A DNA stretch of 17,464 nucleotides from an uncultured bacterium (GCA_963934385.1 CAWVYO010000046.1:1-17464), one strand, 5' to 3'; shown: positions 32-17,464, counted from the first letter of the stretch. Notes: generated from the sequence alone by a model not told the origin. Made by a program: numbers and translations.

Positions 32-832
32 TCACGGTGCTGGCAGACAGACCATAAACCTCGTGCCTGTACGTGTCGGAATTATACGCATCTGACCTCC
101 AGCCTCGAGAACATTCTTGTGCATTCTTCGGATCGCCAGAATAGCCAAATCATGTGTTTCGCTATCAGACAATACATCCTCAGGGTCTATTGAATGGTTG
201 TGAGACCCCGAGTCTTCAACCCCTATCCAGAGCCCTGACTGACCCTGTGTAACGGTAACATGCACTCCTGTGCCCCCACCGTTTCGATCTATCACATCCA
301 GGGCTCCCTCTAATAGATGATCTACGACGTCCTGTACTAAGCGTGGATCTCCAATCACCCGACTAGGCTGAATATCTAATATTAGCGCCACACCGCGATG
401 CCTAAAGGTGTCTCTTGCGGACTTTACTGCTCGCATAGCAGCCGCCTGTGCATCTGCACCACCTTCACCTACCCACCGCTTGGGTCTTGGTGACTTAGGA
501 GCTATCCACGACCCATCATCCAAAAGCCCAAGTAACTTCTCGCCCCTCCTAACCAGTAAAGGCCTGTGAGCTGGGAGCTTGTCAACAGCTGTCGCGCCAT
601 CTACATAGAGCGCTGTTCGACCTCCGCGTATCATATCCAAGATCATTTCCGAGTCAGCTTGCTCAACTAGCGCACCAGACAAAACTCGAGCCTTTCCCGC
701 ACCATCTTGTACAGCAACATAAATTGCACCACCCTGCACTGATGCTAAAATGTCTTGAACCCTCTCAATACCCCAAACTTCCACAACAGAGGAAAGAGGT
801 AGGTCAGCTACTGAAGGTACGTGTTTTTCCAT
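32..832 (-). CDS. GHKL-family ATPase domain protein of the anti-sigma-factor / RsbW / SpoIIAB serine-kinase type (HATPase_c_2-like), with an uncharacterised ~130-aa N-terminal domain
   Basis: Complete ORF with an ATG at 830-832 and a TGA at 32-34. The C-terminal ~130 aa shows an N-box-like 'LLEGALDVIDRNGGG' and a G1-like 'LWIGVEDSGSH'. The C-terminal 'IPTRTGTRFMV' resembles SpoIIAB 'TPGKGTRVIL'. The G2 box is degenerate ('THDLAILAI'). No HisKA H-box is present, so this is not a classical sensor kinase. All of this is motif recall; no search was run. Confidence 0.5.
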   Translation of the reverse strand: MEKHVPSVADLPLSSVVEVWGIERVQDILASVQGGAIYVAVQDGAGKARVLSGALVEQADSEMILDMIRGGRTALYVDGATAVDKLPAHRPLLVRRGEKLLGLLDDGSWIAPKSPRPKRWVGEGGADAQAAAMRAVKSARDTFRHRGVALILDIQPSRVIGDPRLVQDVVDHLLEGALDVIDRNGGGTGVHVTVTQGQSGLWIGVEDSGSHNHSIDPEDVLSDSETHDLAILAIRRMHKNVLEAGGQMRIIPTRTGTRFMVCLPAP

Positions 833-2339: not shown

Positions 2340-4103
2340 TCAGACGTTTTTCACCGACAATTCAACCAGTTGTACGGCTTCGGCTGACGATGGTGCCCCA
2401 GACAATAAACACTGTGCCTTTGTCGTCTTAGGGAATGCTATTACATCGCGGATGTTCTCAGTAGAGGCCAAAAGCATCGCACAGCGATCAAACCCAAAGG
2501 CTATACCTCCGTGTGGAGGCGCACCGTTACGTAGAGCGTCAACCAAGAAGCCGAATTTTTCTGTAGCCTCTTCTGGGCTTAGACCCAACGCTGTGAACAC
2601 CTGGCTCTGAACATCTGGGTTGTGAATACGAATACTACCGCCAGCTATCTCATAGCCATTGCACACTAGGTCATACGCATCGGACAATACGTCACTCTCA
2701 CGACCTGAGCTAAGATATTCAACATGCTCCTTTTTAGGAGATGTAAATGGGTGGTGACACGCTACCCAGCGGTTTGAATCGTCGTCGAACTCAAACGCAG
2801 GGAAGTCAACAACCCAACAGAAAGAGAACTTTTCTCTAGGGTAAAGTGTAAGCTCCTTACCAAGATGTGCCCTAAGGCGCCCAAGACCTGCCTGAACACT
2901 CTTCTCAGCTCCAAGCCCCAGCAATAGAAGGTCGCCCTCTTCGGCGTTAAGCTTGGCCCCTACAACCTCGCGCTCAGACTCGGACAAGAGCTTGCCCATT
3001 GGACCACTCCAACCATCTGCGTTGACCTTACCCCACATAAGTCCACCCATTCCGTAGCGCCTAACAAACTCAGTCCAACGATCGATAACCTTCCGTGAGC
3101 TGGTACCAGCGGCACCTTTTACGTTCATGGCTTTTGCGATTCCACCATCAGAAATAGCACCCCCCACTATACGGGACTCCGACTTTGAGAGCTCATCGGT
3201 GAGGTATACATGCTCCATAGCAAATCGGGTATCCGGTGCGTCAACCCCAAAGCGATCCATGGACTCCTGCCAGGTAATACGGACAATATCTGGGATCTCA
3301 ATCCCACGAACACTGCTCCACATTGACCGCAACACACCTTCGGCGAGCTCAATCACCATCTCCTGTGTAGGAAACGACATCTCAATATCGATCTGAGTAA
3401 ACTCTGGCTGACGGTCTGCTCGAAGATCCTCGTCTCTAAAACACTTTACGATTTGAAAATACCTATCTAAGCCTGACACCATTAGCAGCTGCTTGAAGAT
3501 TTGAGGACTCTGAGGCAACGCATACCACTGACCTGCGTGGACACGAGATGGTACCAAGTAGTCACGAGCCCCCTCTGGGGTCGCCTTAGTGAGTACCGGT
3601 GTCTCGATCTCAAGGAACGACTCTGAGTCTAGATACCCGCGAACAGCCTGTGCTGCCTTATGTCGAATAACCAGGTTTTTCTGAAGCTCTGGACGACGCA
3701 GGTCGAGGTAACGATACTTTAGGCGTGTCTCCTCGTGTGCATTAGCGGCGCTCTCTGGTGTAAACGGGAGAGGTGGCGTATTAGACAACTGTGTAAACTC
3801 GCTAGGAACGATCTCTATCTCTCCTGTTGGGATCTTCTTGTTGGGATTTGATCGCATAACGACCTTGCCTGTCACCTCAACAACGAACTCCTGACGAACC
3901 TTGGCAGCCAGCTCGCGAACATTATCCGCACACCGCTCATCAACAGTCACCTGAACCTTCCCGTAACGGTCTCTAATATTTAGAAACGTCACGCCGCCGA
4001 GGTTGCGATAGCTATCAACCCAACCCTGAATTGTTACCGTAATACCGTTGTTATCGGCGGTTAATTCCCCACACACATGAGTGCGTCGCGCATTCTTGAG
4101 CAT
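2340..4103 (-). CDS. aspS: Aspartate--tRNA ligase (aspartyl-tRNA synthetase, class IIb, bacterial type with insertion domain)
   Basis: 587 aa. The N-terminal OB-fold reads 'RTHVCGELT...IQGWVDSYRNLGGVTFLNIRDRYGKVQV'. Class II motif 2 'FQIVKCFRDEDLRADRQPEFTQIDIEMSF' is near-identical to E. coli AspRS. Motif 3 is 'GGIAFGFDRCAMLLASTENIRDVIAFPKT'. The ATG is at 4101-4103, with a GGAGG RBS 6 nt upstream on the minus strand (4110-4114). Confidence 0.97.
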   Translation of the reverse strand: MLKNARRTHVCGELTADNNGITVTIQGWVDSYRNLGGVTFLNIRDRYGKVQVTVDERCADNVRELAAKVRQEFVVEVTGKVVMRSNPNKKIPTGEIEIVPSEFTQLSNTPPLPFTPESAANAHEETRLKYRYLDLRRPELQKNLVIRHKAAQAVRGYLDSESFLEIETPVLTKATPEGARDYLVPSRVHAGQWYALPQSPQIFKQLLMVSGLDRYFQIVKCFRDEDLRADRQPEFTQIDIEMSFPTQEMVIELAEGVLRSMWSSVRGIEIPDIVRITWQESMDRFGVDAPDTRFAMEHVYLTDELSKSESRIVGGAISDGGIAKAMNVKGAAGTSSRKVIDRWTEFVRRYGMGGLMWGKVNADGWSGPMGKLLSESEREVVGAKLNAEEGDLLLLGLGAEKSVQAGLGRLRAHLGKELTLYPREKFSFCWVVDFPAFEFDDDSNRWVACHHPFTSPKKEHVEYLSSGRESDVLSDAYDLVCNGYEIAGGSIRIHNPDVQSQVFTALGLSPEEATEKFGFLVDALRNGAPPHGGIAFGFDRCAMLLASTENIRDVIAFPKTTKAQCLLSGAPSSAEAVQLVELSVKNV

Positions 4104-4182
4104 TTCTGGCCTCCATAGTCGCAGGTCTTCTATCTGGTAATGCCTCGGGACGCACCGTTTCAGTCCCAGGCACCTCTACATA

Positions 4183-7100
4183 CTACTGCTCAGCGTTATC
4201 CCAGCCAGAGGCACATTCAGGATCTTGAGAATCCGAGAAACCATCAAAATCATTATCCAAGCTGTCATTACACTGGTAAGCGACGTTGTAACCGCCCTGC
4301 TCAGTGGCCGTTGTAGATGTTGGGCAGTCGGGATCATCTGTGTCCACCCAACCGTCAGAGTCGTTATCTAGCGTGTCATTACACTCAGTGATTGGATCCG
4401 CTTCATCTGAATCAACTGCATCAGCACAGCCCAGGTCATCGGAGTCAATCAAACCGTCGCTGTCATCGTCCAACCCATTGTTACACACATAAGAAGAACT
4501 GTAGCCCCCTTGCTCGTAAAGAGTAGCCGAAGTTGCGCAGTCGGGATCATCTGTGTCGTACCAACCATCACCATCGTTGTCGATCGTGTCAGCACACTCC
4601 GCCAAGTGGCTCTCATCGGCGTCAAACGCCGACTCACAACCAAAGTCATCGGCGTCAGTGTAGCCGTCGGCGTCATCGTCAGTCCCGTTGTTACACACAA
4701 ACGAGGTCTCATAACCTAGCTCTGTTGCACTCCAAGAACAGTCAGGATCGTCTGAGTCGTACCAACCATCGCCGTCGTCGTCTGCACCATCGGAACAGGT
4801 TGCGTCAGCCACTGTCGCCTCGAGGTTATCCCAAGCGTCAAGACACTCACTGTCTTCACTATCTACAAGAGCATCCCCGTCATCATCTACGCCATTGTTA
4901 CACTCCGCAGCACCTGTGTACCCAGCCTCAGCGGTCGAGGTAACACAGTCGGGATCTTCGTCGTCAATCCAGCCGTCGCTATCGTTGTCACTGGAGTCAC
5001 TACATACGGATCCAGGGTTGGTCTCAAGGCTATCCCATGCGTTGTCGCAACCTGTATCGTTACCGTCAGTGTAGCTGTCGTTGTCGTCATCGGCGCCGTT
5101 GTTGCACTCACTAGTTATAAAGCCAACCTCTTCGCCCACATACCAGCAGTCTGGATCATCGTCGTCGATCCAGCCATCGCTATCATTGTCAGATTGGTCA
5201 TCACAAGAGGTACCATCGCCCTCTATTACATCAAACCCCGAGTCACAGTCGCTATCGGTTGAGTCCGCATAACCGTCTGAGTCGTTATCCAGTCCATCGG
5301 AGCAAGCCACTTGCCAGGAGCCATCCTCGGCGTAACCTAACAAGCAGTCTGGATCGTCATCGTCAGTCCAACCGTCGCCGTCGTTGTCACTCGAATCAGA
5401 GCAGGTGACGTCACCGTCCACCTCTGTATCCATTAGTGCCTCTAGGCAACCTGGATCCTCCGCATCGGCGTAGCCATCGAGGTCGTTATCAACACCGTCG
5501 TTACAGGCTGAAGGGAAGGCCCCTCGCTCGGCGTTACCAAACATACAGTCCGGATCAGTGTCGTCCACCCAACCATCGAGGTCATCGTCAATGGCGTTGA
5601 TACAGCTACCTGCCGCAAGGGCGTCCTCCTGGTTAGCCCAAGCGTTCAGACACTGAGGATCGTCACCATCTACAAAGCTGTCTAAATCGTTATCAACACC
5701 ATCGTGGCAGGCTGTCGATGCGAAGCTGTTGTCCTCTGAAACTCCCAACACACAGTCGGGATCATCCCCGTCTATCCAGCTGTCAAAGTCATTATCTAAT
5801 AGATCGGAACACGTAGAATCTGGATCGGACTCATTACTGTCAATCGCAAGCGCGCAGCCCGAGTCCTCAGCATCAACAAGAGAATCTGAGTCGTCGTCGA
5901 TACCATTCCCACAGACAGAAGTGCCCCAACCCAACTCAAGACCGTATACACCACAGTCAATATCGTCCGAATCGATCCAACCATCGGAGTCATTGTCTAA
6001 CTCATCCGAGCATGGGTCAGTCGACGACGCACTCAGCTCGAGGTTGTCCCACGCGTCGTCACAACCGGTATCGTTTGCGTCGATGTCACCGTCGGAGTCG
6101 TTGTCAACTCCATCGTTGCATTCAGCCAAACCAGCAGCACCACCGGACTCAACGCCACCATTAAAGCAGTCAGGGTCCTCATCGTCAACCCAACCGTCGG
6201 AGTCATCGTCCGTACCGTCCAAACAGGTGGCGTCTAGAGAGTCCTCATCTTCATCGAGCGCGTCTTCACAATCCGAATCGTCCGAGTCTATGTCTCCATC
6301 GGAGTCGTTATCAATGCCATCGTTACAGACGACAGTGGTGAACCCGACCTCCTCACCGCTAAAACTACAATCTGGATCATCTGTATCGACCCAACCATCG
6401 GAGTCATTGTCTTCAAAATCTGTGCAGACTGGCTCTGCTTGCTCGTAGTCCTGCCAAGCCACTATGCAGTCTGAGTCGGCTGCATCTATGGTGCCGTCTG
6501 AGTCGTTATCCAGCCCGTCATTACAAGCGAAACTTGTAGTTGCAGACTCATTCCCCGTAGATAGGCAGTCAATATCATCTGCGTCTGACCAGCCGTCTCC
6601 GTCATCGTCAGAGCCGTTCTCGCAGTCATCCGCATTGTCGTCTTCGACAGTGTCATAGGCGCTATCGCAACCTGTATCAACTTCGTCTATTAGCAGGTCG
6701 CCGTCGTTATCCACGCCATCGTTACACTCGGAGTCACCGTACCCCAGCTCATCCTCATCTTCGTCGCAGTCGGGATCTTGGTCGTCGATCCAACCATCGG
6801 AGTCATTGTCTAGACCGTCGCCATAGCAGGTGCCATCTACCTCATCGTCATCGAAACCGTCGTCGCAACCGATATCGTCGAAATCAACGTCACCGTCACC
6901 GTCATTGTCGCTATCGTCATTGCACTCGCTAGATGAGGTTCCTAACTCTTCGGTTCCGGTTGAGCAGTCTGGATCTAAATCATCACGCCAACCATCTTCG
7001 TCGTTGTCTTCGCCGTCAGTACAGTCAGTCGACGAGGAGCTCTCTACGTCATCTAGGGCATCAAAGCATTCAGAGTCATCAGTATCCACAGATCCATCAG

Positions 7101-9261
7101 AGTCATTATCTAGTCCGTCGTTACACTCGGTTGCACCAACACCTGACTCAACATCCGTCCCGTCACAGTCGGGGTCTTCAGCATCTATCCAGCCATCAGA
7201 ATCGTTGTCCTGAAGGTCGTTACAATCAGTAGAGATGTCTGTTTCGTCGTTGTCACTACCCTCGTTACAACCAGGATCTTCTGAATCAACAAGCCCATCT
7301 AAATCGTTGTCGCTACCGTCATTACACGCAGACGAAGAAGTTGACGGTCCCTCTTGATTATCAGTTGCCGTACCGTTGCAGCCCGGATCGTCATCATCTA
7401 TCCAGCCATCGGAGTCATTGTCCACCGAGTCGGAACATGCATACTCTTGCTCATAGAGGTCACCAGCATCATCGCAGTCATCGTCAGCAGAGTCGATGTC
7501 GCTGTCGCTGTCATTATCGACACCGTCGTTACACTGAGTTCCCGAATACCCCGTCTCTGTGCTACCTGTGACACAGTCCGGGTCTTCAGCATCTATGTAA
7601 CCATCGGAGTCGTTGTCCAACAGATCTTCACACTCACCTGCCTCAACCGTATCACTGGCTGCAGTACAGACCGTATCGAGAGCGTCTATATAGAAGTCTC
7701 CATCGTTGTCTATCCCATCGTTACACTCAGTTGAGCCCCAACCACTCTCGGAGCTGCCAACCGAGCAGTCTGGGTCATCCGCATCGATCCAGCCATCGGA
7801 GTCATTGTCCACCGAGTCTGAACAGTAGTCTTCCTCAGCGTCGTCCAGCGCATTGTCACAATCTACGTCATCAGAGTCGACCTTTCCGTCAAAGTCGTTG
7901 TCCGATCCATCGTTACACTCAGTAGTGCCGTAGCCCGCCTCGGTATCTCCTGCATCACAGTCCGGATCGTCTAAATCGATCCATCCGTCGGAATCGTTAT
8001 CCAATGAATCAGAACAGGCTTCTGCCTCGGTATCGTCGGCTGATGAGTCACAGTCAACGTCGAAACCGTCGATATCACTGTCACCGTCGTTATCTAAACC
8101 ATCGTTGCACTCAGTTGAGCCCTCAAAGCCAGATCCTTCGCTCTCGCCGTAGATACTGCCAAGACAACCCAGATCGTCAATATCAATCCAAGAGTCTGCG
8201 TCGTTATCCAGCCCGTCTTCGCAGTCGTTAAACTCGGTGTCATCTAAGGCATCGGCACAACTAGGATCAAAGAAGTCAGTAGACAGATCACCGTCGTTAT
8301 CAACACCATCGTTGCACTCAACTGAGCCATAACCGACCTCTTCATCCCCAGTCGTACAATCGGGATCGTACACGTCAGTCCAGCCATCGCCGTCGTTGTC
8401 TACCTCATCGGAACATCCCGGCAGAAACTCTGTAGCTAATGAATCGATACACTCTGGATCATCGGAATCAGTGAGACCGTCGTTATCGTTATCCAGACCA
8501 TCATTGCACTCATAATCGGTATAGTCGCCGTTCTCTACACCCGCTACTAGGCACTCTGGGTCGTCGGCATCAGTCCAGCCATCGAAATCGTTGTCTAGAC
8601 CGTCGTCACAGATACTTATTTCTGATTCATCAGTTGCGACATCGCACTCTTCGTCCTCACGATCAATGAGACCATCTTCGTCGTTATCTAGACCGTCATT
8701 ACACTCGCCATCGCCAAAACCAGTCTCCTCAATCGAAGAGTCGCAGTCGGGATCTTCCTCGTCAACCCAACCGTCTAAATCGTTATCGTCTCCGTCATTA
8801 CAGGGGTGAATTGGCGTATCTAAGAGTGAAAACCCTGTGATCGTCACCTCTTGAACGGTCTGATCAGCAAAGGAGTATTCTTCGGTTGCTGGAGAAGATG
8901 CGATCAAAGTCACACCACTCCAACCAAGGGCCAAGAAGCTCATAGAGGGACTGTTGTTCCCCTGCTTCAGCTCTAATATTTTAAACCCCTCGTCCAGATC
9001 ATACAGATAGGCGGCCTCTAACTCGGGGTCGTCTTCTACCCAGTCAGCGAACAATAGAGCGCCCTGCTCTCCAGCCACTATCTCATCTCCAGACGAATCT
9101 AAAAACGGGCTGCTTGGATCTATAATAACACCAACAGCATCTGCCATTCCCGATAGGGCGCTAGCCTCCTCAGTATCGATTCCAACCAAAATGGAAGTGG
9201 GGGTCTCTGGAGCCGTACAGGCAGACAACAAGATCGCCAATGGGATAATATTTAACTTCAC
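4183..9261 (-). CDS. Giant (1692 aa) highly acidic tandem-repeat lipoprotein built from about 46 Cys-bracketed DxDxDG-type putative Ca2+/metal-binding 21-mers (MopE-like / thrombospondin-type-3-like motif), preceded by a ~150-aa N-terminal domain of unknown function
   Basis: The GTG start at 9259-9261 has an AGAGG about 9 nt upstream. A lipoprotein signal 'MKLNIIPLAILLSAC' gives a lipobox L-S-A-C. Residues 154-1690 consist of repeats with core 'C-[NS]-D-G-x-D-N-D-x-D-G-x-x-D-x-x-D-P-x-C', alternating between a 'DGW[IVT]D..DPDC' subtype and an 'ECNDG.DND' subtype. Asp and Glu are extremely abundant, Lys and Arg almost absent, and there are about 93 Cys. A long ORF running through a repetitive region with no frameshifts argues that this is a real gene. 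Confidence 0.9.
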   Translation of the reverse strand: MKLNIIPLAILLSACTAPETPTSILVGIDTEEASALSGMADAVGVIIDPSSPFLDSSGDEIVAGEQGALLFADWVEDDPELEAAYLYDLDEGFKILELKQGNNSPSMSFLALGWSGVTLIASSPATEEYSFADQTVQEVTITGFSLLDTPIHPCNDGDDNDLDGWVDEEDPDCDSSIEETGFGDGECNDGLDNDEDGLIDREDEECDVATDESEISICDDGLDNDFDGWTDADDPECLVAGVENGDYTDYECNDGLDNDNDGLTDSDDPECIDSLATEFLPGCSDEVDNDGDGWTDVYDPDCTTGDEEVGYGSVECNDGVDNDGDLSTDFFDPSCADALDDTEFNDCEDGLDNDADSWIDIDDLGCLGSIYGESEGSGFEGSTECNDGLDNDGDSDIDGFDVDCDSSADDTEAEACSDSLDNDSDGWIDLDDPDCDAGDTEAGYGTTECNDGSDNDFDGKVDSDDVDCDNALDDAEEDYCSDSVDNDSDGWIDADDPDCSVGSSESGWGSTECNDGIDNDGDFYIDALDTVCTAASDTVEAGECEDLLDNDSDGYIDAEDPDCVTGSTETGYSGTQCNDGVDNDSDSDIDSADDDCDDAGDLYEQEYACSDSVDNDSDGWIDDDDPGCNGTATDNQEGPSTSSSACNDGSDNDLDGLVDSEDPGCNEGSDNDETDISTDCNDLQDNDSDGWIDAEDPDCDGTDVESGVGATECNDGLDNDSDGSVDTDDSECFDALDDVESSSSTDCTDGEDNDEDGWRDDLDPDCSTGTEELGTSSSECNDDSDNDGDGDVDFDDIGCDDGFDDDEVDGTCYGDGLDNDSDGWIDDQDPDCDEDEDELGYGDSECNDGVDNDGDLLIDEVDTGCDSAYDTVEDDNADDCENGSDDDGDGWSDADDIDCLSTGNESATTSFACNDGLDNDSDGTIDAADSDCIVAWQDYEQAEPVCTDFEDNDSDGWVDTDDPDCSFSGEEVGFTTVVCNDGIDNDSDGDIDSDDSDCEDALDEDEDSLDATCLDGTDDDSDGWVDDEDPDCFNGGVESGGAAGLAECNDGVDNDSDGDIDANDTGCDDAWDNLELSASSTDPCSDELDNDSDGWIDSDDIDCGVYGLELGWGTSVCGNGIDDDSDSLVDAEDSGCALAIDSNESDPDSTCSDLLDNDFDSWIDGDDPDCVLGVSEDNSFASTACHDGVDNDLDSFVDGDDPQCLNAWANQEDALAAGSCINAIDDDLDGWVDDTDPDCMFGNAERGAFPSACNDGVDNDLDGYADAEDPGCLEALMDTEVDGDVTCSDSSDNDGDGWTDDDDPDCLLGYAEDGSWQVACSDGLDNDSDGYADSTDSDCDSGFDVIEGDGTSCDDQSDNDSDGWIDDDDPDCWYVGEEVGFITSECNNGADDDNDSYTDGNDTGCDNAWDSLETNPGSVCSDSSDNDSDGWIDDEDPDCVTSTAEAGYTGAAECNNGVDDDGDALVDSEDSECLDAWDNLEATVADATCSDGADDDGDGWYDSDDPDCSWSATELGYETSFVCNNGTDDDADGYTDADDFGCESAFDADESHLAECADTIDNDGDGWYDTDDPDCATSATLYEQGGYSSSYVCNNGLDDDSDGLIDSDDLGCADAVDSDEADPITECNDTLDNDSDGWVDTDDPDCPTSTTATEQGGYNVAYQCNDSLDNDFDGFSDSQDPECASGWDNAEQ
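4186..8802 (-). repeat. Imperfect coding tandem repeat: about 23 di-repeats of ~200 bp (about 46 21-codon motif units plus linkers) inside the giant lipoprotein gene
   Basis: The first repeat Cys is residue 154 (codon at 8800-8802) and the last repeat ends just before the stop. The nucleotide sequence is GAC/GAT/AAC/GGN-rich and recurs with period ~100 and ~200 bp. Copies are diverged, with no long identical stretches, which is consistent with an old array under selection. Confidence 0.85.
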
Positions 9262-10343
9262 GGTAGCAACACCTCTACATCACCAGTTGGTGCCGGTTCA
9301 GGCTTCATTGATTCGGCGACAACTGCCCCCGTGACACCCACTCCTACAGTTCCAGCACCTACAGCAGCCCAGAAGGTCCAGCGAGATGTAAGCGGGGATA
9401 TAATCTCCAGAGTCGAGCTGTCTGGTGATCCCTCCTGAAACAACGTGGCCCTGTAGCTTACTCTTCCCTCTCTAGGGACCCTCACCGACCGCTCAACAAC
9501 CTGAACTCCAGGAGCTTCTACCCTTACAAGGTAAGTCCCTCGAGCAATATCTAAAGAGACCTTAGGACCCTCTCCAATTAGATGACCGTCCACATAGACC
9601 AGGGCACTATCGTTTCCCGTCTTAACCAGAAGCTCGGGCGAATCGGCCACCATTGTGACCTGTACATCCCCCCTAGTACCATCAGACGTGTCGACCTCGC
9701 GCAGCGCTGTGCCATAACCTTCTAATTGGATACGCACGCGGTGAGCCCCACTCTCAATCTCTGTTAGACTCAGGGGAGTTACACCAACAAGTTCGCTATC
9801 TAGATATACATTTGCACCGCTTGGGTTCGAGCCAAAAGAGAACAGACCTTGGGATGACTGTAACTGCTCAAAAATGAGTACATTGGCTCCATCCGTGTAT
9901 GTGAAGCTTCCAGAGACTGGTTCGTGCTGCGGCGCAATCAATGTGAACTCGTGATCGCCAACGGGCATGTCACTAAGCCTAATAGGAGCGCTACCCATAG
10001 CCTGACCATCAACTGTTACTGTCGCGCCAGTTGGGGTCACCATAAACTCTACTGTACCGCTGCCAGAGAATAGCTCTGCAGATACTTCACTGGGAACGCC
10101 CTCCGATATACCAACCCTAGTCGCCCAGGGAGTGAAGTTATCCGCCACGATCCTTATTGAGTGACTACCTACAGTCAACTCACCTTCATACGGGGTGACT
10201 CCGACCTCTACGTAATCGACGTAAACATTAGCGCCATCAACGTTTGAAACAACCGATATTGTTCCCATTGGATCAGCCAAGGCAGAGGATCCTACGAATA
10301 GGCATATAGGCAGCAGGTGTTTGATGGTTCTTATCAAGCTCAT
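9258..10343 (-). CDS. PEGA-domain protein (4 tandem PEGA domains) with N-terminal signal peptide and C-terminal transmembrane anchor
   Basis: The ATG at 10341-10343 has an AGGAGA about 11 nt upstream. The signal peptide is 'MSLIRTIKHLLPICLFVGSSALA'. Four segments fit the PEGA pattern G-A-x-V-Y-V-D-G-x-x-[LV]-G-x-T-P...G-x-H-x-[VI]-R-[IV]: 'GANVYVDYVEVGVTP..GSHSIRI', 'GATVTVDGQAMGSAP..GDHEFTL', 'GANVYLDSELVGVTP..GAHRVRI' and 'ALVYVDGHLIGEGP..GTYLVRV'. The C-terminal hydrophobic stretch is 'WTFWAAVGAGTVGVGVTGAVVA'. The TGA stop at 9258-9260 overlaps the GTG start of the downstream giant gene. Confidence 0.85.
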   Translation of the reverse strand: MSLIRTIKHLLPICLFVGSSALADPMGTISVVSNVDGANVYVDYVEVGVTPYEGELTVGSHSIRIVADNFTPWATRVGISEGVPSEVSAELFSGSGTVEFMVTPTGATVTVDGQAMGSAPIRLSDMPVGDHEFTLIAPQHEPVSGSFTYTDGANVLIFEQLQSSQGLFSFGSNPSGANVYLDSELVGVTPLSLTEIESGAHRVRIQLEGYGTALREVDTSDGTRGDVQVTMVADSPELLVKTGNDSALVYVDGHLIGEGPKVSLDIARGTYLVRVEAPGVQVVERSVRVPREGRVSYRATLFQEGSPDSSTLEIISPLTSRWTFWAAVGAGTVGVGVTGAVVAESMKPEPAPTGDVEVLLP

Positions 10344-10405
10344 TGGGCCAGTTTTCTCCTTTGAACAGCGATCGACACCTTACCACAGAGTAGAGGAAAC
10401 CACAG

Positions 10406-11206
10406 CTATCTGATCGCAATTCCATCGTGATAGATAGCCCAATAAACAGATCCTGCACCTAGAGAGAGTATTATCGGCAATGCTACTGCCCCCCATTGAG
10501 AGGGAGTAACACTCAAAATAACTGGCTCATAAACTGGAGCAGATCGCCCTGTCCTGGACGGCAACAGAGTCACCACCTCGACCCTATCCTCCATCCTGGC
10601 TCCTTCAACCTGGACTAAGTGACGCCCCGGAGAAAGCGATGAGATTTCCACTAATTCTTGATTTGAGATATTGCGCGTAACGCCATCAACTATCAACCTT
10701 GCAGCTGCTGGCTCTAATTCTACAATTAGATCGGCTGTGGTGCTAAACAGTAAGCCCGCTGCTGCCAGGTCGACCCCGCCTCCACGAGGTAGGTTCATCT
10801 GTAAAGGCTCTACAAGGAGCGCTCCTTCGGCTCCAAATATCTGTGTGTAGCCTATCTCTCTTGTACCCAAAAAACCTAATTCCACCCTCACCAGTAAATC
10901 CAAACCAAGGGACGTTACAGCGTCACGCCAACAAACTCCTCGTTCTCCGCAGCGCTCTCCTAAACTGGCAAGAATCCCCGCGTTAGAGCTTCCGTCCGAA
11001 AGCGAGGAGGTCAATTCGTAGTTGACGCTACCTCGAAAAAACTGCTCAAACCCCTCTACTGTCTTGGGGCTAACGGACACCGGAAGAGAGGCGTCATCAA
11101 CCACAGCCACCCCAACGCCCAAAGGCGCAGGCCAGCTCTCTACAGACTCTACAGCCTGTGAAACTCCACTCAAAAGGAACATGGGGATCAAGAGTTTCAA
11201 GCACAC
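10406..11206 (-). CDS. Secreted, membrane-anchored hypothetical protein with one PEGA-like segment
   Basis: The GTG start at 11204-11206 has an AGGA just upstream. The signal peptide is 'MCLKLLIPMFLLSGVSQA'. The PEGA-like stretch is 'ARLIVDGVTRNISNQELVEISSLSPGRHLVQVEGAR'. A C-terminal TM segment reads 'WGAVALPIILSLGAGSVYWAIY'. No other recognisable domain is present. Confidence 0.65.
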   Translation of the reverse strand: MCLKLLIPMFLLSGVSQAVESVESWPAPLGVGVAVVDDASLPVSVSPKTVEGFEQFFRGSVNYELTSSLSDGSSNAGILASLGERCGERGVCWRDAVTSLGLDLLVRVELGFLGTREIGYTQIFGAEGALLVEPLQMNLPRGGGVDLAAAGLLFSTTADLIVELEPAAARLIVDGVTRNISNQELVEISSLSPGRHLVQVEGARMEDRVEVVTLLPSRTGRSAPVYEPVILSVTPSQWGAVALPIILSLGAGSVYWAIYHDGIAIR

Positions 11207-11220
11207 TTTCCTAAAGCCCG

Positions 11221-11736
11221 CTACTGTAACAACCCTGACAATTCGGACTCAAGCTCGGACTCGAGCTGCCCGGCGTTCGGGGCTCCGACTGCAAACAGGT
11301 CGCCACTGGGGTCGATAATAAAGGTCATTGGCAGCATAGATACACCGTACCTCGCCGCAACAACACGATGATTGTCACGCAACACAGGGAAGTCTAGTCC
11401 CTGACCCTCGATCCAATTCGAAAGCTCACCGAGCTCGCCCTGATCAACGCTTACTCCAAAAACCTGAAGCCCGTCACGACGGTGGGAATTATAGACTGAA
11501 TTAAGTTCAGCCAACCCACTACCACCGCTATCTTTAGCAAAGAAATAGAGAACTACACTGCTTCGATTAGAAGGATCATCTGTAATCTCTGCCAAAGATA
11601 TCCTAGAGCCAGACGCTTCTGTTGTCGCCTCGTTAATAGCCGGAAGACTAAAAAGACTCGCTGGCTCACCTACACTTGGGACCTGAGCATTTGCGGCAAG
11701 AGAAAATAACAATGGAAATATTAGGCTCACGAACAC
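11221..11736 (-). CDS. Thioredoxin-fold (TlpA/ResA/redoxin-like) secreted protein with the CxxC active site replaced by SGGS, predicted redox-inactive
   Basis: The signal peptide is 'MFVSLIFPLLFSLAANA'. The protein is collinear with the TlpA/AhpC-TSA redoxin pattern: 'VVLYFFAKDSGGSGLAEL' corresponds to 'vLvnFWAsWCgPCr.E.P', so Ser sits at both Cys positions. Then 'GLQVFGVSVD', 'GLDFPVLRDNHRVVAARYGVSMLPMTFIIDPSGDL' and the cis-Pro 'LP' before the beta-strand are conserved. The annotated start is the GTG at 11736. The GTG two codons downstream (11728-11730) has better AAGAGG spacing and may be the true start. Confidence 0.7.
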   Translation of the reverse strand: MFVSLIFPLLFSLAANAQVPSVGEPASLFSLPAINEATTEASGSRISLAEITDDPSNRSSVVLYFFAKDSGGSGLAELNSVYNSHRRDGLQVFGVSVDQGELGELSNWIEGQGLDFPVLRDNHRVVAARYGVSMLPMTFIIDPSGDLFAVGAPNAGQLESELESELSGLLQ

Positions 11737-11821
11737 CTCTTAGTGGATAGGCTACCGAGTAGTGAGAGTATCTCTTATAGTATGCTCGGTAAACCCCTTG
11801 CTTTCAAGTTGAGCCAAAATA

Positions 11822-13054
11822 ATGATGCCAATTCCATCACTTGTCGCCAAACTGGCGCTCTCGATATCAGCCGAAGGAGGGCGACTGTTTGCTGTGGGCG
11901 GATGGGTTAGAGACAACATCGCTATGCGCGGTTCAAAGGATGTTGATCTAGAAGCTCACAAAATTTCCAGCGAGGATCTTGAGAGAGTTCTGCTAGCCCA
12001 CGGTAGAGTCGACTTTGTGGGGAAGAGCTTTGGGGTATACAAGGTCACAATAGGAGATCAAACGCTGGACGTATCACTACCTCGACGCGACTCATCCCCT
12101 ACATCTGTGCAGCCTGACCCTTTCATGGGAGTATCTGAGGCCGCCCGGCGCAGGGACATCACCATAAACGCTATAATGCTAGACCCCATCTCACAGGAAA
12201 TAGTCGATCCGTTCAACGGAGTTTCAGATCTAAAAAATGGGATTCTAAGAGAGGTGGACGCATCACTCTTTGGTGACGACCCCTTGAGGGTATTGCGCGT
12301 AGTCCGGTTCGCCTCTATTTTCGAATTCGAAATAACGGAATCGTTAGCCACGCTGTGTAGAGGTTGCGACCTTTCAGGGATACCCGTAGAGAGAATTCTT
12401 ACGGAATTGCACCGCATAATGCTCGAGTCACCAAACCCTCAGACCGCCTTAAAAGTACTTGAAGACCTAGGCCAACTCAACACGGTGATCCCATTCACCG
12501 CTGGAGCCTCTTTGGATCAAATGTACGACAACTGGAGCGCTGCGTCTGAATTGCGCGCTGATCTTAAGAGTGACGCTCAGCGGTTAGTTCTTATGTGGGG
12601 TGCCCTTTTACACGCATCTGGCAACCCACCTACTAAAGCACTTAGCTACTTTAAGATTCGTCGTTACGGAAAAGCACCATTAGTAAAACAGGTCACAGGT
12701 CTGCTTGAAACACTGCGTTCGGGTACCGAAGATCTAAACACACTTTTGCGTACAATGGCTGAGCACTGTGACATTTCGGCTGGACTAGCTCTCTATATTG
12801 CTACCAATTCCAGCGTAATACCTGGGTTAGATAGAACAGAGCTGTACGGTCGCGCAAAGACCCTAAATATAGTAGATGGTCCACTCCCTGTACTTATAGA
12901 CGGGCAGACCTTGAGTGACCTAGGTGTTGCAGATGGTCCGGATATGGGTCACTGGATAAAAGCAGTTCGCAAAGCTCAACTATCGGGAAGGCTCTCCACA
13001 AAGACAGAAGCCAGTAACTGGCTTGTAAACCAACTAGACCTCACTGGAGATTAG
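11822..13054 (+). CDS. tRNA nucleotidyltransferase (CCA-adding enzyme) / poly(A) polymerase family protein (class II polymerase-beta-type head domain; no obvious HD domain)
   Basis: The head-domain motifs are 'AVGGWVRDNIAMRGSKDVDL' (the GGxVRD nucleotidyltransferase motif with catalytic D..D) and 'RRDITINAIMLD' (the RRD-[FI]-T-I-N-A motif). Length is 410 aa. The ATG is at 11822 with a second ATG in tandem, and the RBS is weak. Confidence 0.8.
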   Translation: MMPIPSLVAKLALSISAEGGRLFAVGGWVRDNIAMRGSKDVDLEAHKISSEDLERVLLAHGRVDFVGKSFGVYKVTIGDQTLDVSLPRRDSSPTSVQPDPFMGVSEAARRRDITINAIMLDPISQEIVDPFNGVSDLKNGILREVDASLFGDDPLRVLRVVRFASIFEFEITESLATLCRGCDLSGIPVERILTELHRIMLESPNPQTALKVLEDLGQLNTVIPFTAGASLDQMYDNWSAASELRADLKSDAQRLVLMWGALLHASGNPPTKALSYFKIRRYGKAPLVKQVTGLLETLRSGTEDLNTLLRTMAEHCDISAGLALYIATNSSVIPGLDRTELYGRAKTLNIVDGPLPVLIDGQTLSDLGVADGPDMGHWIKAVRKAQLSGRLSTKTEASNWLVNQLDLTGD

Positions 13055-13057
13055 GAA

Positions 13058-14587
13058 ATGTTACCCCTTTTTATTTGCCAACTTGTAATAGCGGGGGCTT
13101 TAGCACAGGAGGTGTCGACTACACAGCCTGTGAGCCCAATGGTGGTTACATCGGATCCTGCAGAGGAGATAGACCAACCTTTCGAGCTTCGGGGGGATCT
13201 TCGAGCAGAGTACCTTATCGGGCAACCAATCATCGTAACACTGACAGTAAACAACACCAGTTCTGAGCCCGCTACCTTCCAAAACCTGTCCGCTCGGCCC
13301 TGGCTAGTCCGATTCAAAGTCGAAACTGTTGACTCTCGGGGAAACTCGGGTCAAACACAGACCAGGTTTACAACCCCACCAGAGGTCGACCCCATGACCC
13401 TCTGGACTATTCAACCACGGGGCATGAGGACTGTAGACATTGAGATCCCTTCTGGAGCCAGCCTGGGTCTCGGTGATTACAATATTTCAATTGAGGTAGA
13501 TGGCCAAGCTGGGCTCTTCGAGATCCCCACAACCCAGGTATCGATACAGGTCACAAATCCTGTAGCAGATCATCTCCCTTCTGAGGTAATGGGAATAGAG
13601 AGAACAGGGCTTCACGCTACCTGGCTTCACCGAGCTGGTGAAGGTTATGACCTCTACATACACTCGGTGAGTGGTAATCAGATTGACGGAGATAGCTTCA
13701 ACACCCACATTGCTCACCTATCTGACCCAATAGACCCCACTCTTTCGCGCTCCTTACCGGCCCAAGCCCTAAACAGGTTCATATACTGGAGACATGGCGA
13801 ACGAGGAATCGGCTTTATTGAAAGTAACGGATCGTCGCAGAACAGAGTCGACACAGTGGATCTGCCTTACCCACAGGTTGAGCTGCTAGCCCGCGGGATA
13901 ACAACAACATCTGGCGAGCTACTAATACCTCTTTGGATACCGTCACCAGCGGGCATTACCGGAGAGGTTAGAGTCGCAGAGATAAAAAATGGCAGACTCG
14001 AGGCCATCACATCGGTTGTAAGGATGCGCTCCAAACCAGTCTGGACCGAATCAGGTATCGACAGCTCTGGGGCTTTGAGGCTTCTCTTAGGGCACAGTGA
14101 AGGAGTTGACCTATACACCCTATCTGCCGCCACAGGACTCCCTGCCCGTGGACTAAGGGTGATCCAAGGTCGTGGAACCTCGACCAGAGGATCCTTTGGG
14201 ATCTCAACTTACGAAGAGCAGCAGGGGCTCTCTGTAATAACTGCCAACATTTCTGTGGGTGAGGCAGTAGATACTGAACAACCCACAGATGTGATCGCCA
14301 CTCAATGGTGGACACTCAATGGTAATCTCATCGATACCCCAACTCCTGTTGCGTTACCGGGCAACGGGAATCAAATAGAGAGCCTATTGGCTGGCCCCGA
14401 AGGGGCTTGGGTGCTCAACTATAACAGCGAGTCAGGTGTGAGTATGTTTGCGGACCAACAGGGTGAATCCAGCTCCATTGAACCTTGGGCGAACCTTATT
14501 TGGGACGCCAACGGAGATCTATGGATCCGTACCGTTAACGGGCTCGCTTTTGGAACCGCTCCTATCTCTGTCCAACCACCAAACTAA
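13058..14587 (+). CDS. Secreted hypothetical protein (509 aa) of unknown function
   Basis: The ATG is 4 nt after the stop of the preceding gene, with GGAGA upstream. The signal peptide is 'MLPLFICQLVIAGALAQE'. I recognise no conserved motif. It ends with TAA at 14585-14587. Confidence 0.7.
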   Translation: MLPLFICQLVIAGALAQEVSTTQPVSPMVVTSDPAEEIDQPFELRGDLRAEYLIGQPIIVTLTVNNTSSEPATFQNLSARPWLVRFKVETVDSRGNSGQTQTRFTTPPEVDPMTLWTIQPRGMRTVDIEIPSGASLGLGDYNISIEVDGQAGLFEIPTTQVSIQVTNPVADHLPSEVMGIERTGLHATWLHRAGEGYDLYIHSVSGNQIDGDSFNTHIAHLSDPIDPTLSRSLPAQALNRFIYWRHGERGIGFIESNGSSQNRVDTVDLPYPQVELLARGITTTSGELLIPLWIPSPAGITGEVRVAEIKNGRLEAITSVVRMRSKPVWTESGIDSSGALRLLLGHSEGVDLYTLSAATGLPARGLRVIQGRGTSTRGSFGISTYEEQQGLSVITANISVGEAVDTEQPTDVIATQWWTLNGNLIDTPTPVALPGNGNQIESLLAGPEGAWVLNYNSESGVSMFADQQGESSSIEPWANLIWDANGDLWIRTVNGLAFGTAPISVQPPN

Positions 14588-14665: not shown

Positions 14666-15514
14666 CTATTCTTCGTCACCACAAAGGTCTGGGTTAGCTG
14701 TGCAGAACTCAAAGAGATTGTTGTTACAGAACGCTGATTCAAGAGCTTCGAACGGCTCGTGCGCCAAATCCATATTATCTGCATCGCGAGCTTCCGATGG
14801 CATAGTACACTCGGTTAGACCGCCAATAGAGCTAGCGATATCATTACATGCGCCATCTACGATAGCGAAAGCGTAATCTACCAATCCATCATCAAGGGGT
14901 ACTGAGAAGGTGTTGAGTACAACTGTGTAGCTCTTACCAGGGTGTACAGAGGTGTCAATTGTACAATACTCAATGGCACCGCGACCACCGTGGGCATCGG
15001 GAAGGTTACCGTAACCCGCCATGTAGCACTCGTTGAACTCAAGGCGGACCTCGTTCCCGAGAGAATCCTCGTAAACAGCAGCAAAGTCGCCCATTTCGTA
15101 ACCTGGCGAGCCTGTATAGTAAGCAGTAAGACCTACCTCTAGGTCAATGTCACCATCATCTTTGTAGTTGTCTTGGTATGAATAGTTTTCGGTTGGAGAC
15201 TGCGCACTTACAGACTCGTTCCAAAACACTGCTTCTGGGTCGACCATAACGCAAACCTCTCCGCCTGTTCCAGCGAAAGTCAAGGTCGTTCCACCGTACG
15301 TCCCTGCATCTGCAGCTCCAATGCGACCGTAGTGGATCACCTCTGTACGAGAGTCCTGGAAGTCTCCAAGCTCAATAACACCCATCTCTCCTAGATCCTG
15401 AACACCTGGGTAGTTAGGGTTTGGCTCTGAGAGATATGTACGACCTTCACGGTCACAAGCTGCCAGCGTTAAACCGACAACAGAGATGGAAACAATAGCC
15501 TTAGATATAGTCAT
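14666..15514 (-). CDS. Cys-rich lipoprotein of unknown function
   Basis: The ORF track extends to a TTG at 15533-15535 (the bases are CAA on the + strand). The ATG at 15512-15514 gives a canonical lipoprotein signal 'MTISKAIVSISVVGLTLAAC' with lipobox L-A-A-C, and an AGAGGA lies 8-9 nt upstream. That start also removes the overlap with the upstream gene, leaving a 4-nt gap. The mature protein has about 8 further Cys. Confidence 0.7.
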   Translation of the reverse strand: MTISKAIVSISVVGLTLAACDREGRTYLSEPNPNYPGVQDLGEMGVIELGDFQDSRTEVIHYGRIGAADAGTYGGTTLTFAGTGGEVCVMVDPEAVFWNESVSAQSPTENYSYQDNYKDDGDIDLEVGLTAYYTGSPGYEMGDFAAVYEDSLGNEVRLEFNECYMAGYGNLPDAHGGRGAIEYCTIDTSVHPGKSYTVVLNTFSVPLDDGLVDYAFAIVDGACNDIASSIGGLTECTMPSEARDADNMDLAHEPFEALESAFCNNNLFEFCTANPDLCGDEE

Positions 15515-15518
15515 AATA

Positions 15519-16436
15519 TTAATCCTCTGCTCCAACTAGATAGTCCATTCGAACACTTACCTCTGAAGCAGATAACTCGGCTGCCCTGTAGGAATCAGCA
15601 TCTGGCTCAGTGAAAACATACGGTGCTTGTACCGTCCAATCTCCGTCGTAAATGTACTTACTCGGGAAGTTGATAAGGTCTGTAAAGTTAGCACCGTAGT
15701 AGTAATCGTTAGAATACTCGTTATTCTCCTGACCACGATCTAGATCGCAAGTTGAAAAGGTGAAGTTCTCACTAGGTGAGTCCATCCAACCCCAAATCTT
15801 CATGTCTTTTTCGTAGGTAACCTGCCAAAGGTCGAACTCTGCCTCGTAGTCACCATCAGCATTCTGCTGAAAGTCCAGATCTGAGACTATGTTGCCATCG
15901 GTGTCTAGATATTCTGACAGGAACGACAACTCACGGTCTGTGGTCATCTCAAAGAGTTCGTAGCAGTATGCTCGGAAATACTCATCGGAATCTACAACCT
16001 GCCCGAACTCATCGACAACAGGGTCACCCAAGGTGTCGCTGTACCAGTTCAAGATGTCATCGAAGTTCTTAAAGCGACCAGTGACGATCCTACAGGAGAG
16101 GTCCGAGAAACAGGCAAAGTCGTAACGACCAACTGTTCCGCCACCATATGGGTAGGTGTTACCAGGGGTTCCATCTACAATGATGGGGCCCATCTCGGGG
16201 TGTGGGTAACCGAAGTCGTCAGTGCTTACACTTGGAAACACACCGAGGATAACAGGGCCGATAGCCCTCACATCTTCGACTTCTTCCGTATCGCCTGTCT
16301 TTGCGTCAGTAACGGTAAAGACCGCTGCTTCACGTGGTAGAACGACTGTACCGCGAACATCAACCTGAGGGAGGTGCTCGTCAAAGGTGCAGCCTGTGAT
16401 CGCGATAACCGCGAGAGATAAAACAAGTGTCCGCAT
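15519..16436 (-). CDS. Lipoprotein of unknown function
   Basis: The ATG is at 16434-16436. The signal is 'MRTLVLSLAVIAITGC' with lipobox I-T-G-C. Only 2 nt separate the upstream gene's TGA (16439-16441) from this start. There are 5 further Cys and an Asp/Tyr-rich C-terminal half. I recognise no family. Confidence 0.7.
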   Translation of the reverse strand: MRTLVLSLAVIAITGCTFDEHLPQVDVRGTVVLPREAAVFTVTDAKTGDTEEVEDVRAIGPVILGVFPSVSTDDFGYPHPEMGPIIVDGTPGNTYPYGGGTVGRYDFACFSDLSCRIVTGRFKNFDDILNWYSDTLGDPVVDEFGQVVDSDEYFRAYCYELFEMTTDRELSFLSEYLDTDGNIVSDLDFQQNADGDYEAEFDLWQVTYEKDMKIWGWMDSPSENFTFSTCDLDRGQENNEYSNDYYYGANFTDLINFPSKYIYDGDWTVQAPYVFTEPDADSYRAAELSASEVSVRMDYLVGAED

Positions 16437-16438
16437 AA

Positions 16439-17464
16439 TCAGTACTCGTATTTAAGTGAGAGGGCGATTTGAAGTGGGCTCTGGCGAGAGTAGATGAACC
16501 AACGGTTCTGTGTACCAATACCAGTATTTACAGAGTCAGCCTGCTGCGCGTTTATAGAATTCTGCAGCTGACCAATCAGCCACAGTTTTCCTCGACGAAC
16601 GTCGATAGCTTGCTGAGCCATCAGGTCGATGTAGTAGGTTGGCTCAGTTCTAGCATAAGTTCCAACGTGGTCTTTCAACTGTGCATTTCCGCCGTACCCT
16701 ACAGTGTAGTAGTAACGGGTAACAGGGTAGCCAGAGAAGTATGAGAACTGGAACCCAAGACGCGTAGTCCAAGGATCGTTAGGGAAGTCATACGACCCTG
16801 CCATCTTGATTTGGTGACGAATATCAGTTGGAAGGTTTCCGTATTTCAGCTCGTATTGGGGTGGAATAGCCAACCCTGAATCTGAGCCCGTCTGGATGGT
16901 ACCACGTGAGACGACATAGGAATATGTCGAGAGCAGCTGCCATCTGTCGGAGAAGTTCTTCTTTAGTGATACGTCTGTCTGGTAGTAGTCACGACGAGAC
17001 ACTGTTGGTGTCCTTAGTCGTAAGTACTGAGCAGTATTACCGTTTGAGGTACCTACGAAGCTGTAACCATCTTGATCCCAAACAACGTTTGTCTCATCAA
17101 ACACGTAGACATTTGATGTGAACTTTGCAGAGAAGTTCACGTCGAATACGATGTCTTGGTAAAGCTCACGAGCACCACCAATTGTGAACTCGTCTGAGTG
17201 TGGTGCCGTAAGGTGCTCACCAACTCGGTTTGTGTTCTCTAGTGGAACCTGATCGGCCTCTTCAACAGAAGAGCTTGTGAAGTTGTCGAACAACTCGCCA
17301 ACAAAGAGCTTGTAACCAAACCCCGATTGAGAGAGGTCATTCGCAACACCGAGGTTTGAGATGCTGTTAAAGCGACCATAACCACCACGGATAACCGTAC
17401 GCTCATCACCCCAAGGGTCCCAAGCCATGTAGAATCGTGGTCCAAGAACGCTAACATCGACAAC
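16439..17464 (-). CDS. Outer-membrane beta-barrel protein, C-terminal portion (5' end lies beyond the window); possibly TonB-dependent-receptor-like or another large OMP
   Basis: The reading frame stays open to the window edge: upstream of the first Met the frame reads '...VVDVSVLGPRFY' with no stop. The sequence alternates aromatic and hydrophilic residues in the manner of amphipathic beta-strands and is rich in Y, G, N, T and S. The C-terminus '...LSLKYEY' ends in an aromatic residue, the typical beta-barrel assembly signal. The family call is tentative. Confidence 0.6.
   Translation of the reverse strand, partial: VVDVSVLGPRFYMAWDPWGDERTVIRGGYGRFNSISNLGVANDLSQSGFGYKLFVGELFDNFTSSSVEEADQVPLENTNRVGEHLTAPHSDEFTIGGARELYQDIVFDVNFSAKFTSNVYVFDETNVVWDQDGYSFVGTSNGNTAQYLRLRTPTVSRRDYYQTDVSLKKNFSDRWQLLSTYSYVVSRGTIQTGSDSGLAIPPQYELKYGNLPTDIRHQIKMAGSYDFPNDPWTTRLGFQFSYFSGYPVTRYYYTVGYGGNAQLKDHVGTYARTEPTYYIDLMAQQAIDVRRGKLWLIGQLQNSINAQQADSVNTGIGTQNRWFIYSRQSPLQIALSLKYEY

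Follow-up and report, generated by a model that had tools for sequence, protein, structure and literature searches.

A marine metagenome contig of an uncultured bacterium (CAWVYO010000046.1; 17,464 bp, G+C ~50%, analysed whole and called the window below) carries four consecutive minus-strand genes for exported proteins, and the question it raises is whether these genes make up one envelope system or contain a smaller unit. The genes, here named A to D from upstream to downstream, encode in turn a thioredoxin-fold protein without cysteines, a clade-specific protein with a weakly PEGA-like domain, a membrane-anchored protein with four PEGA domains, and a giant acidic repeat protein with a predicted lipoprotein signal (Table 1). 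An earlier note, made from the sequence alone, had described them as co-oriented genes for exported proteins, and this much is confirmed: the longest open reading frames (ORFs) are spaced by 14, 62 and -4 nt, and each product has a hydrophobic signal-like N-terminus, with one extra C-terminal hydrophobic segment in B and in C. The stretch assigned to the candidate module, 9258-11736, covers A, B and C but leaves D outside. Homologous loci, numbered with an L below, lead to a narrower answer, in which the conserved unit consists of C and D.

The family of C was traced outward by a homologue search in a graded series down to ~32% identity, using the encoding contigs together with a scan of species-representative genomes; several of the loci are labelled Myxococcota. 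Fifteen diverged loci were reached through C itself (L005-L008, L010-L014 and L016-L021, with C 32-44% identical where measured) and four more through the repeats of D (L026, L031, L033 and L037), which gives 19 in total. In each of these loci (19/19) the C orthologue is directly followed by a D-type gene. Seventeen junctions between the two genes were read, with spacings of -4 to +12 nt. In 11 of them the stop codon of C overlaps the start of D as ATGA or GTGA, and in the others no more than 12 nt separates the genes. A PEGA paralogue (L009, 29% identical over ~70% of the query) has no D. The association was also followed in the reverse direction, by a metagenome scan with the repeat pattern of D that returned 37 loci. 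Repeat proteins that share the N-terminal non-repeat domain of D (the N-domain) have C directly upstream in 4/4 cases, and of the repeat proteins with their start within the locus, at least 12 have neither the N-domain nor an upstream C. We found no earlier description of a PEGA protein paired with a giant acidic repeat protein, and the C–D cassette of diverged Myxococcota, built from known modules, is apparently undescribed.

Genes A and B do not follow the pair. In the 15 loci reached through C, neither BLAST nor profile hidden Markov models (HMMs) detect a gene of type A or B up to 10 kb from C–D, and profile HMMs find none in the available sequence of the four loci reached through D. The order A-B-C-D is kept in L001-L004 (at least 67% identity), where aspS, the Band_7 gene and the CCA-enzyme gene are collinear too; because the whole neighbourhood is collinear, the four-gene synteny of these relatives is uninformative. 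The conserved unit is C plus a D with the N-domain, and the four-gene block is therefore not the unit. Neighbourhood conservation, by which the candidate module can be judged, holds for C–D in every diverged locus and fails for A and B. When the neighbours are clustered across the 19 loci, selB immediately precedes C in 13, aspS follows D in five, and a Band_7/GYF gene is present in three. The selB genes (selenocysteine elongation factor, 600-733 aa as read, same strand as C) are those of L005, L006, L011-L014, L016, L018-L021, L031 and L033. In the window clade, A and B occupy the position where most relatives carry selB, and across the loci the upstream flank of C varies between A-B, selB, LEA_2 and divergent redox genes.

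By its lipobox, D is a predicted lipoprotein, and a lipobox-type cysteine is present in 16/16 orthologues read. At +2 the window protein has Thr, and none of the orthologues in which this position was read has Lys; in Myxococcus, Lys at this position of a lipoprotein is the rule for inner-membrane retention. A profile of the N-domain finds no match in PDB and Pfam, and a homologue search with the N-terminal 154 aa returned nothing although orthologues exist, a miss of the word index. Asp makes up 26% of D, Lys and Arg together number seven, and the net charge is ~-557. The 93 cysteines comprise that of the lipobox and two in each of 46 loops, with none in the linkers; the odd count fits one lipidated cysteine plus paired ones. 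Nine residues follow the last loop, with no further domain and no hydrophobic tag. The NCBIfam repeat model NF033662 (acid_disulf_rpt) matches D with 628.9 bits over 42 stretches (cut-off 41) and six products from L001 and L005-L007 with 100-718 bits each. It takes the place of the MopE-like repeats that had been suggested for D, in which no Pfam family is found at E <= 0.1, PF11617 and TSP_3 (PF02412) included. NF033662 is also the only NCBIfam family on D, with no Myxococcus Cys-rich repeat model and no MYXO-CTERM tag among the matches, and a full-text literature search under the name of the repeat found no paper. A true Pfam Cu-binding_MopE match occurs in L007, in a 118-aa protein (7398-7754, minus strand) encoded ~2.2 kb upstream of C–D and not conserved elsewhere.

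Two types of loop strictly alternate along D: type I, CxDxxDNDSDGWxDxDDPDC, and type II, CNDGxDNDxDGxxDxxDxxC. Positions C1, D6, D8, D10, D14, D17 and C20 are invariant in 45/45 loops of twenty residues (one more loop has 21), while Asp is found at position 3 in 38/45, Asn at position 7 in 36/45 and Asp at position 19 in 19/22 type I loops. A D-x-D-x-D-x3-D-x2-D core, mostly with Gly after the third Asp, is present in 46/46 loops without producing a Pfam TSP_3 match. When a four-loop stretch was searched against PDB sequences, the best match was the C-rich domain of teneurin-4 (7plp, CGDSKDNDGDGLVDCMDPDC, 13/20 identical, E 0.023), the sole near-significant one for the loops. An AlphaFold2 (AF2) model of four loops, with the other loops serving as the alignment, reached a predicted local distance difference test (pLDDT) score of 70.8. 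Foldseek compared this model with 350,542 chains and returned only teneurin-4 and teneurin-3 (25 columns, 56% identity), with a root-mean-square deviation of 2.6 Å and an E of 2.2, which is not significant. In its 1.5 Å structure the teneurin-4 C-rich domain binds three calcium ions through E835, D840, D843, N844, D845, D847, D851, D854 and D856, contains a C838-C857 disulfide, and has two sites, I and II, that are thrombospondin type-3-like (PMC9058538). In loop numbering these ligands fall at positions 3, 6, 7, 8, 10, 14, 17 and 19 and the disulfide corresponds to C1-C20; at the level of sequence, a type I loop of D matches all eight in-loop ligand positions together with C1 and C20.

The same repeat is found within a teneurin-like protein. 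Locus L051 encodes (9119-20012, plus strand) a bacterial teneurin-like lipoprotein of more than 3,631 aa with TTR_TEN1-4 (39.1 bits, cut-off 27), RHS and YD-shell domains. Its N-terminal half contains at least 12 loops such as CDDGEDNDVDGTTDCADADC (NF033662, 280.7 bits over 15 stretches), and the last of them end 70-100 aa ahead of the transthyretin-like (TTR) domain. Bacterial teneurin-like proteins have been reported as enriched in Myxococcota and as lipoproteins there (bioRxiv 10.1101/2025.11.11.687626). Because the NF033662 repeat is shared with L051, the loops of D can be regarded as a two-Cys variant of the teneurin C-rich module, and we consider the predicted link between them and the teneurin C-rich calcium-binding loop well supported. 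Elsewhere, without a C partner, the repeat is fused to TIG, Big_9, cadherin-like, LTD (lamin-tail), subtilase and teneurin-like modules; this domain company suggests that the repeat fits the role of an extracytoplasmic spacer.

The length of the array is conserved as well. Five lineages of D (the window with L001, L006, L011, L014 and L018) have exactly 93 Cys, hence 46 loops, in 1692-1707 aa while being only ~50-55% identical; three other lineages have 77-78 Cys in 1416-1419 aa. Loop i of the window best matches loop i of L006, L014 or L018 in 22-27 of 46 cases, where ~2 would be expected by chance (an estimate that treats loops of the same type as interchangeable), and the mean score of the loop comparison is 109 for pairs on the diagonal and 80 ± 16 for all others. 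In DNA the repeat copies are 60-75% identical, except for one pair at 87%, and Tandem Repeats Finder reported no array. The retention of loop count and order indicates that the array is old, positionally orthologous and selected for number. Such exact conservation in a 46-fold repeat is unusual for tandem repeats, and its persistence at this level of divergence suggests a structure of defined length.

The partner protein C matches Pfam PEGA (PF08308) with 163 bits (cut-off 20.8, E 1.5e-48) in four stretches, and the same region gives a weak CarboxypepD_reg match below the cut-off (E 4.1e-07). Its orthologues were aligned as a set of 28 members that are 31-77% identical to the window protein. 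The short tail behind the transmembrane segment retains its amino acids while the codons vary, which shows that the constraint acts on the protein. A profile of the C family found nothing further in PDB and Pfam. The predicted periplasmic part is acidic to neutral, with a mean isoelectric point of 5.7.

We tentatively propose, as a reading that comes near to an even bet, that the two-gene C–D cassette, in most loci translationally coupled, is the functional unit, in which a lipid-anchored bead chain, stiffened by calcium, is docked by a PEGA stalk in the inner membrane. C would span that membrane as a bitopic protein, with its four PEGA domains, beta-sandwiches in fold, building the stalk in the periplasm. 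Each loop of D would be closed by a C1-C20 disulfide, with calcium ligands at D3, D6, N7, D8, D10, D14, D17 and, in type I, D19; at 2-3 ions per loop, the array would hold ~90-140 calcium ions. D would then be a stiff bead chain of defined length rather than a flexible acidic polymer. The PEGA stalk would dock or organise D at a ratio of about 1:1, probably through the N-domain, since this is the sole feature that separates C-linked from C-free repeat proteins. The pair would serve as a structural or adhesive element of the envelope, with no catalytic part.

Several points weigh against this proposal. With selB, C and D in a row in 13/19 loci, the synteny is in part due to vertical inheritance together with housekeeping genes. 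The contact between C and D, the binding of calcium and the localisation of both proteins are predictions from sequence. If D is exposed on the surface, it is reachable by an inner-membrane partner only during biogenesis. Charge complementarity between C and D was dropped as an explanation, because a periplasmic part that is acidic to neutral makes simple charge pairing unlikely. Kinship of the PEGA domains with the teneurin TTR domain was dropped likewise: hhalign gave the C family and the TTR domain of L051 a probability of 0.1%.

Among the other explanations, the one that survives best, unlikely as we hold it to be, joins A, B, C and D into one four-component envelope system, with A as a thioredoxin-fold helper and B as a second PEGA anchor. 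Its strengths are the common orientation and short gaps with no terminator-like site between the genes, the order kept in L001-L004, the export of all four products, and the way B copies the plan of C (PEGA-like domain, transmembrane segment, short conserved tail); moreover, D would need 46 disulfides and A retains a thioredoxin fold with its cis-Pro loop. However, the relatives that have A-B are all at least 67% identical and collinear in every neighbour, the diverged loci lack both genes as described above, and A cannot form disulfides because it has no cysteine. Of the envelope module put forward earlier, the coherent exported set and the pairing of a PEGA protein with a giant acidic repeat protein stand, but the four-gene module does not extend beyond close relatives.

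A fits the thioredoxin-fold profile (Pfam AhpC-TSA, 62.5 bits, cut-off 26) and matches ResA structures in PDB (E 4e-8), which bears out its description as an SxxS redoxin-like protein, with SGGS in place of CxxC. Neither a catalytic CxxC nor a peroxidatic Cys is present in the protein, which contains zero cysteines and keeps the cis-Pro loop; the NCBIfam ResA model reaches 48 bits against a cut-off of 170. About 30 of the nearest homologue clusters (27-49% identity) are also without the motif and also retain the cis-Pro loop, and this shared lack makes A a member of a widespread family of exported, redox-inert thioredoxin-fold proteins. The family occurs away from C–D: on the only informative contig (>1.2 kb) the homologue lies in an unrelated context of PP2C and TGT genes, and the other contexts, on short contigs, hold nothing that ties the family to PEGA or D.

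B is confined to the clade. The homologue search found only six homologues, all at least 69% identical, and B has no Pfam match at E <= 0.1 and no NCBIfam match. It combines a signal-like N-terminus, two invariant cysteines (86 and 92) and a C-terminal transmembrane segment. An HMM built from the PEGA domains of the C family scores B and five homologues at 14.8-21.1 bits, where the best of 200 shuffles reaches 8.2; hhalign gives B against PEGA a probability of 42%, and an AF2 model made from six close homologues was discarded for its poor quality (pLDDT 38.7). Profile comparison thus lends weak support to calling B PEGA-like. Two PEGA proteins had been claimed for the locus: C, with four domains and a transmembrane anchor, is secure, while the single domain of B is a weak match. 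In the window clade A and B may have been added upstream as accessories of C–D, and one could speculate that A is a redox-inert holdase for a 92-Cys substrate and B a second anchor. The basis for an accessory role is their position and the C-like plan of B only.

Decidedly unlikely, in our estimate, is that D acts mainly as a store or buffer of calcium or other cations, or as a mineral-nucleating polyanion, in the periplasm or at the surface, while C merely tethers it. The charge and Asp content of D, its predicted calcium sites (up to ~100) and its source in a marine metagenome suit such a role. A bulk ion exchanger, however, would not require a conserved number and order of loops, and seawater calcium, at ~10 mM, would hold such sites saturated. 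In addition, the repeat accompanies adhesin-type and enzyme domains elsewhere in a spacer-like manner, and in none of the loci is C–D linked to a gene for a transporter, a carbonic anhydrase or another mineralisation protein. The biomineralisation-like system that had been entertained for this locus finds no gene or motif pointing to it. Finally, it is improbable that C and D adjoin through inherited order in a selB ... aspS housekeeping stretch, D being a surface adhesin in its own right and C a PEGA membrane protein that has nothing to do with it: the recurrent selB and aspS neighbours, the predicted status of the C–D interaction and the occurrence of acidic repeat proteins without C would allow it, but the pair persists in loci with altered neighbours on both sides (the window clade, L007, L008 and L010), stop and start codons overlap in most loci, and the N-domain and the C family always appear together, whether the search sets out from C or from the repeats of D.

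Table 1. Features of the four genes and their immediate surroundings in the window (positions from the first nucleotide of the contig).
Feature	Position	Strand	Remarks
Gene A	11221-11736	-	171 aa; exported cysteine-free TlpA/ResA-like thioredoxin-fold protein; system membership uncertain
SGGS of A, aa 70-73	11518-11529	-	aligns with the WC(K/G)PC active site of distant homologues
Gene B	10406-11206	-	266 aa; clade-specific exported protein, transmembrane segment near the C-terminus; system membership uncertain
PEGA-like domain of B, aa 160-218	10553-10729	-	custom HMM, 15.1 bits
Conserved tail of B, DGIAIR-COOH	10406-10429	-	short C-terminal end after the transmembrane segment
Gene C	9258-10343	-	361 aa; signal peptide, four PEGA domains, one transmembrane helix, short conserved tail
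Four tandem PEGA domains of C, aa 26-304	9432-10268	-	Pfam and orthologue alignment
Transmembrane segment of C, aa 322-344	9312-9380	-	Gly/Ala-rich; after invariant R321, W322-T-F-W325
Tail of C, Pro-rich, then GDVxVxLP-COOH	9261-9311	-	LP invariant in 28/28
GTGA overlap, stop of C onto start of D	9258-9261	-	read as translational coupling
Gene D	4183-9261	-	1692-aa acidic predicted lipoprotein; NF033662 match
Signal peptide and putative lipobox of D, MKLNIIPLAILLSAC	9217-9261	-	hydrophobic stretch, then Cys15 (LLSAC)
N-terminal non-repeat domain of D, aa 16-153	8803-9216	-	138 residues; kept in 17 orthologues; specific to the C-linked subfamily
46 putatively disulfide-bracketed 20-residue loops (C-x18-C) of D	4186-8802	-	23 double repeats of ~66 aa
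Sigma-70-like hexamers, TTGAAA-17-CATACT	11779-11807	-	upstream of A in the 85-nt divergent spacer; consensus match only
12-bp hairpin right after the stop of D	4139-4174	-	no U-tract; z = -0.24 against shuffles; not called as terminator

The gene calls agree with the earlier ones in most respects. Of three GTG starts proposed, those of A and D stand and that of B is uncertain: A begins with GTG at 11736 or, more likely, with GTG at 11730, five nt after AAGAGG, and B with GTG at 11206 or TTG at 11200, its homologues keeping the N-terminal extension as an ORF. C starts with ATG, and GTG is taken as the start of D because no other start gives a signal peptide. A 239-aa Ser-rich ORF on the plus strand (5729-6448), antisense to D, was rejected as a gene and is explained as a mirror-frame by-product of the Asp-codon-rich repeats. 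Upstream of A lies a divergent CCA/poly(A) polymerase-family gene (11822-13054), and the counts of the promoter and terminator scans are not above those of shuffles, with no enrichment in the spacer upstream of A. On the strand of D, 79 nt beyond its end, lies aspS (2340-4103). A simple scan finds no terminator-like site from A through to aspS, and transcription may read through from D into aspS. Membership of the four genes in an aspS housekeeping operon, which the earlier note had named as the alternative to its module, is neither established nor excluded: aspS follows D on the same strand in five of the 19 diverged loci, with no terminator seen between them in the window, and C–D occurs also without aspS. 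No RNA family of Rfam matched anywhere in the window.

The remaining genes of the window flank this group on both sides. The plus strand encodes at 995-2299 an SPFH/Band_7_1 protein that also has two GYF_2 domains and linkers of poly-proline; orthologues of it lie near D or aspS in L008 and L010. At 32-832 (minus strand) lies a gene for a 266-aa protein with a weak HATPase_c match (19.3 bits, below the cut-off) and without HisKA, possibly a sensor kinase-like protein that is degenerate or partial. On the other side, a protein of 509 aa (13058-14587, plus strand), signal-like at its N-terminus and without a family match, is kept beside the CCA-enzyme gene in L001. The last group of the window (14666-17428, minus strand) comprises the 3' part of a TonB-dependent-type outer-membrane barrel, OMP_b-brl_4, whose counterpart in L001 has 893 aa with CarboxypepD_reg and Plug; after the barrel come two predicted lipoproteins without a family match, of 305 aa (lipobox ITGC) and 289 aa (lipobox LAAC).

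Four candidate genes are thereby narrowed to a two-gene envelope cassette of marine and other Myxococcota, which can be set beside several known systems. The name NF033662 denotes a repeat and not a function, and D has a C partner, whereas other NF033662 architectures do not; the unstudied repeat gains a concrete structural model, the calcium site of the teneurin C-rich domain and of thrombospondin type-3. Gene A resembles ResA and TlpA in export, thioredoxin fold and cis-Pro loop and differs from them in having neither CxxC nor any cysteine and in falling far under the NCBIfam cut-off for ResA. Thrombospondin type-3 repeats, including those of bacterial OmpA-like proteins, have the calcium motif DxDxDGxxDxxD, the Asp core of which recurs in the loops of D, mostly with the Gly; the latter are longer, regularly alternating and far more numerous, and Pfam TSP_3 does not match them at E <= 0.1. 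In thrombospondin type-3 repeats the intra-repeat disulfide is reportedly required for calcium binding, going by the title of a 2017 Cell Calcium paper by Dai et al.

A parallel in organisation is offered by TraA/TraB of Myxococcus xanthus, in which a lipid-anchored protein with a disulfide-stiffened Cys-rich stalk is matched 1:1 with a partner that contains calcium-binding TSP3 repeats (PMC12045341). C–D is likewise a two-gene pair of Myxococcota, with a putative ratio of about 1:1. No homology was found between the two systems, NF033662 being all that NCBIfam reports for D. TraA bears MYXO-CTERM and a variable head that is PA14-like, and TraB joins an OmpA domain to an outer-membrane barrel, whereas C–D combines an N-terminal lipobox with an inner-membrane PEGA protein.

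The closest likeness is that to the teneurins. The C-rich domain (human teneurin-4 residues 834-871, PDB 7PLP) has the loop C-x-D-x-x-D-N-D-x-D-G-x-x-D-x-x-D-P-D-C in common with D. It differs in its six cysteines, paired 1-3, 2-5 and 4-6, where D has two per loop, and the loops of L051 keep an extra teneurin-type Cys at loop position 15 that those of D do not have. The teneurin C-rich domain precedes TTR in the same polypeptide, whereas D has no TTR, NHL or YD-shell and presents 46 tandem loops with a separate PEGA protein as partner. A bolder view, which we regard as a long shot, sees in C–D a free-standing prokaryotic counterpart of the teneurin C-rich loop and transthyretin-like module: a calcium-rigidified strut of fixed length (46 loops; 38 in some lineages) held by the PEGA stalk of the inner membrane on one side and by a lipid anchor on the other, and serving the Myxococcota envelope as a ruler or brace. 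If this were true, a calcium-binding domain that has to date been described in teneurins alone would have its clearest bacterial relative in the 46-loop array. The position of the NF033662 loops ahead of TTR in the bacterial teneurin-like protein bears on the origin of the teneurin C-rich domain.

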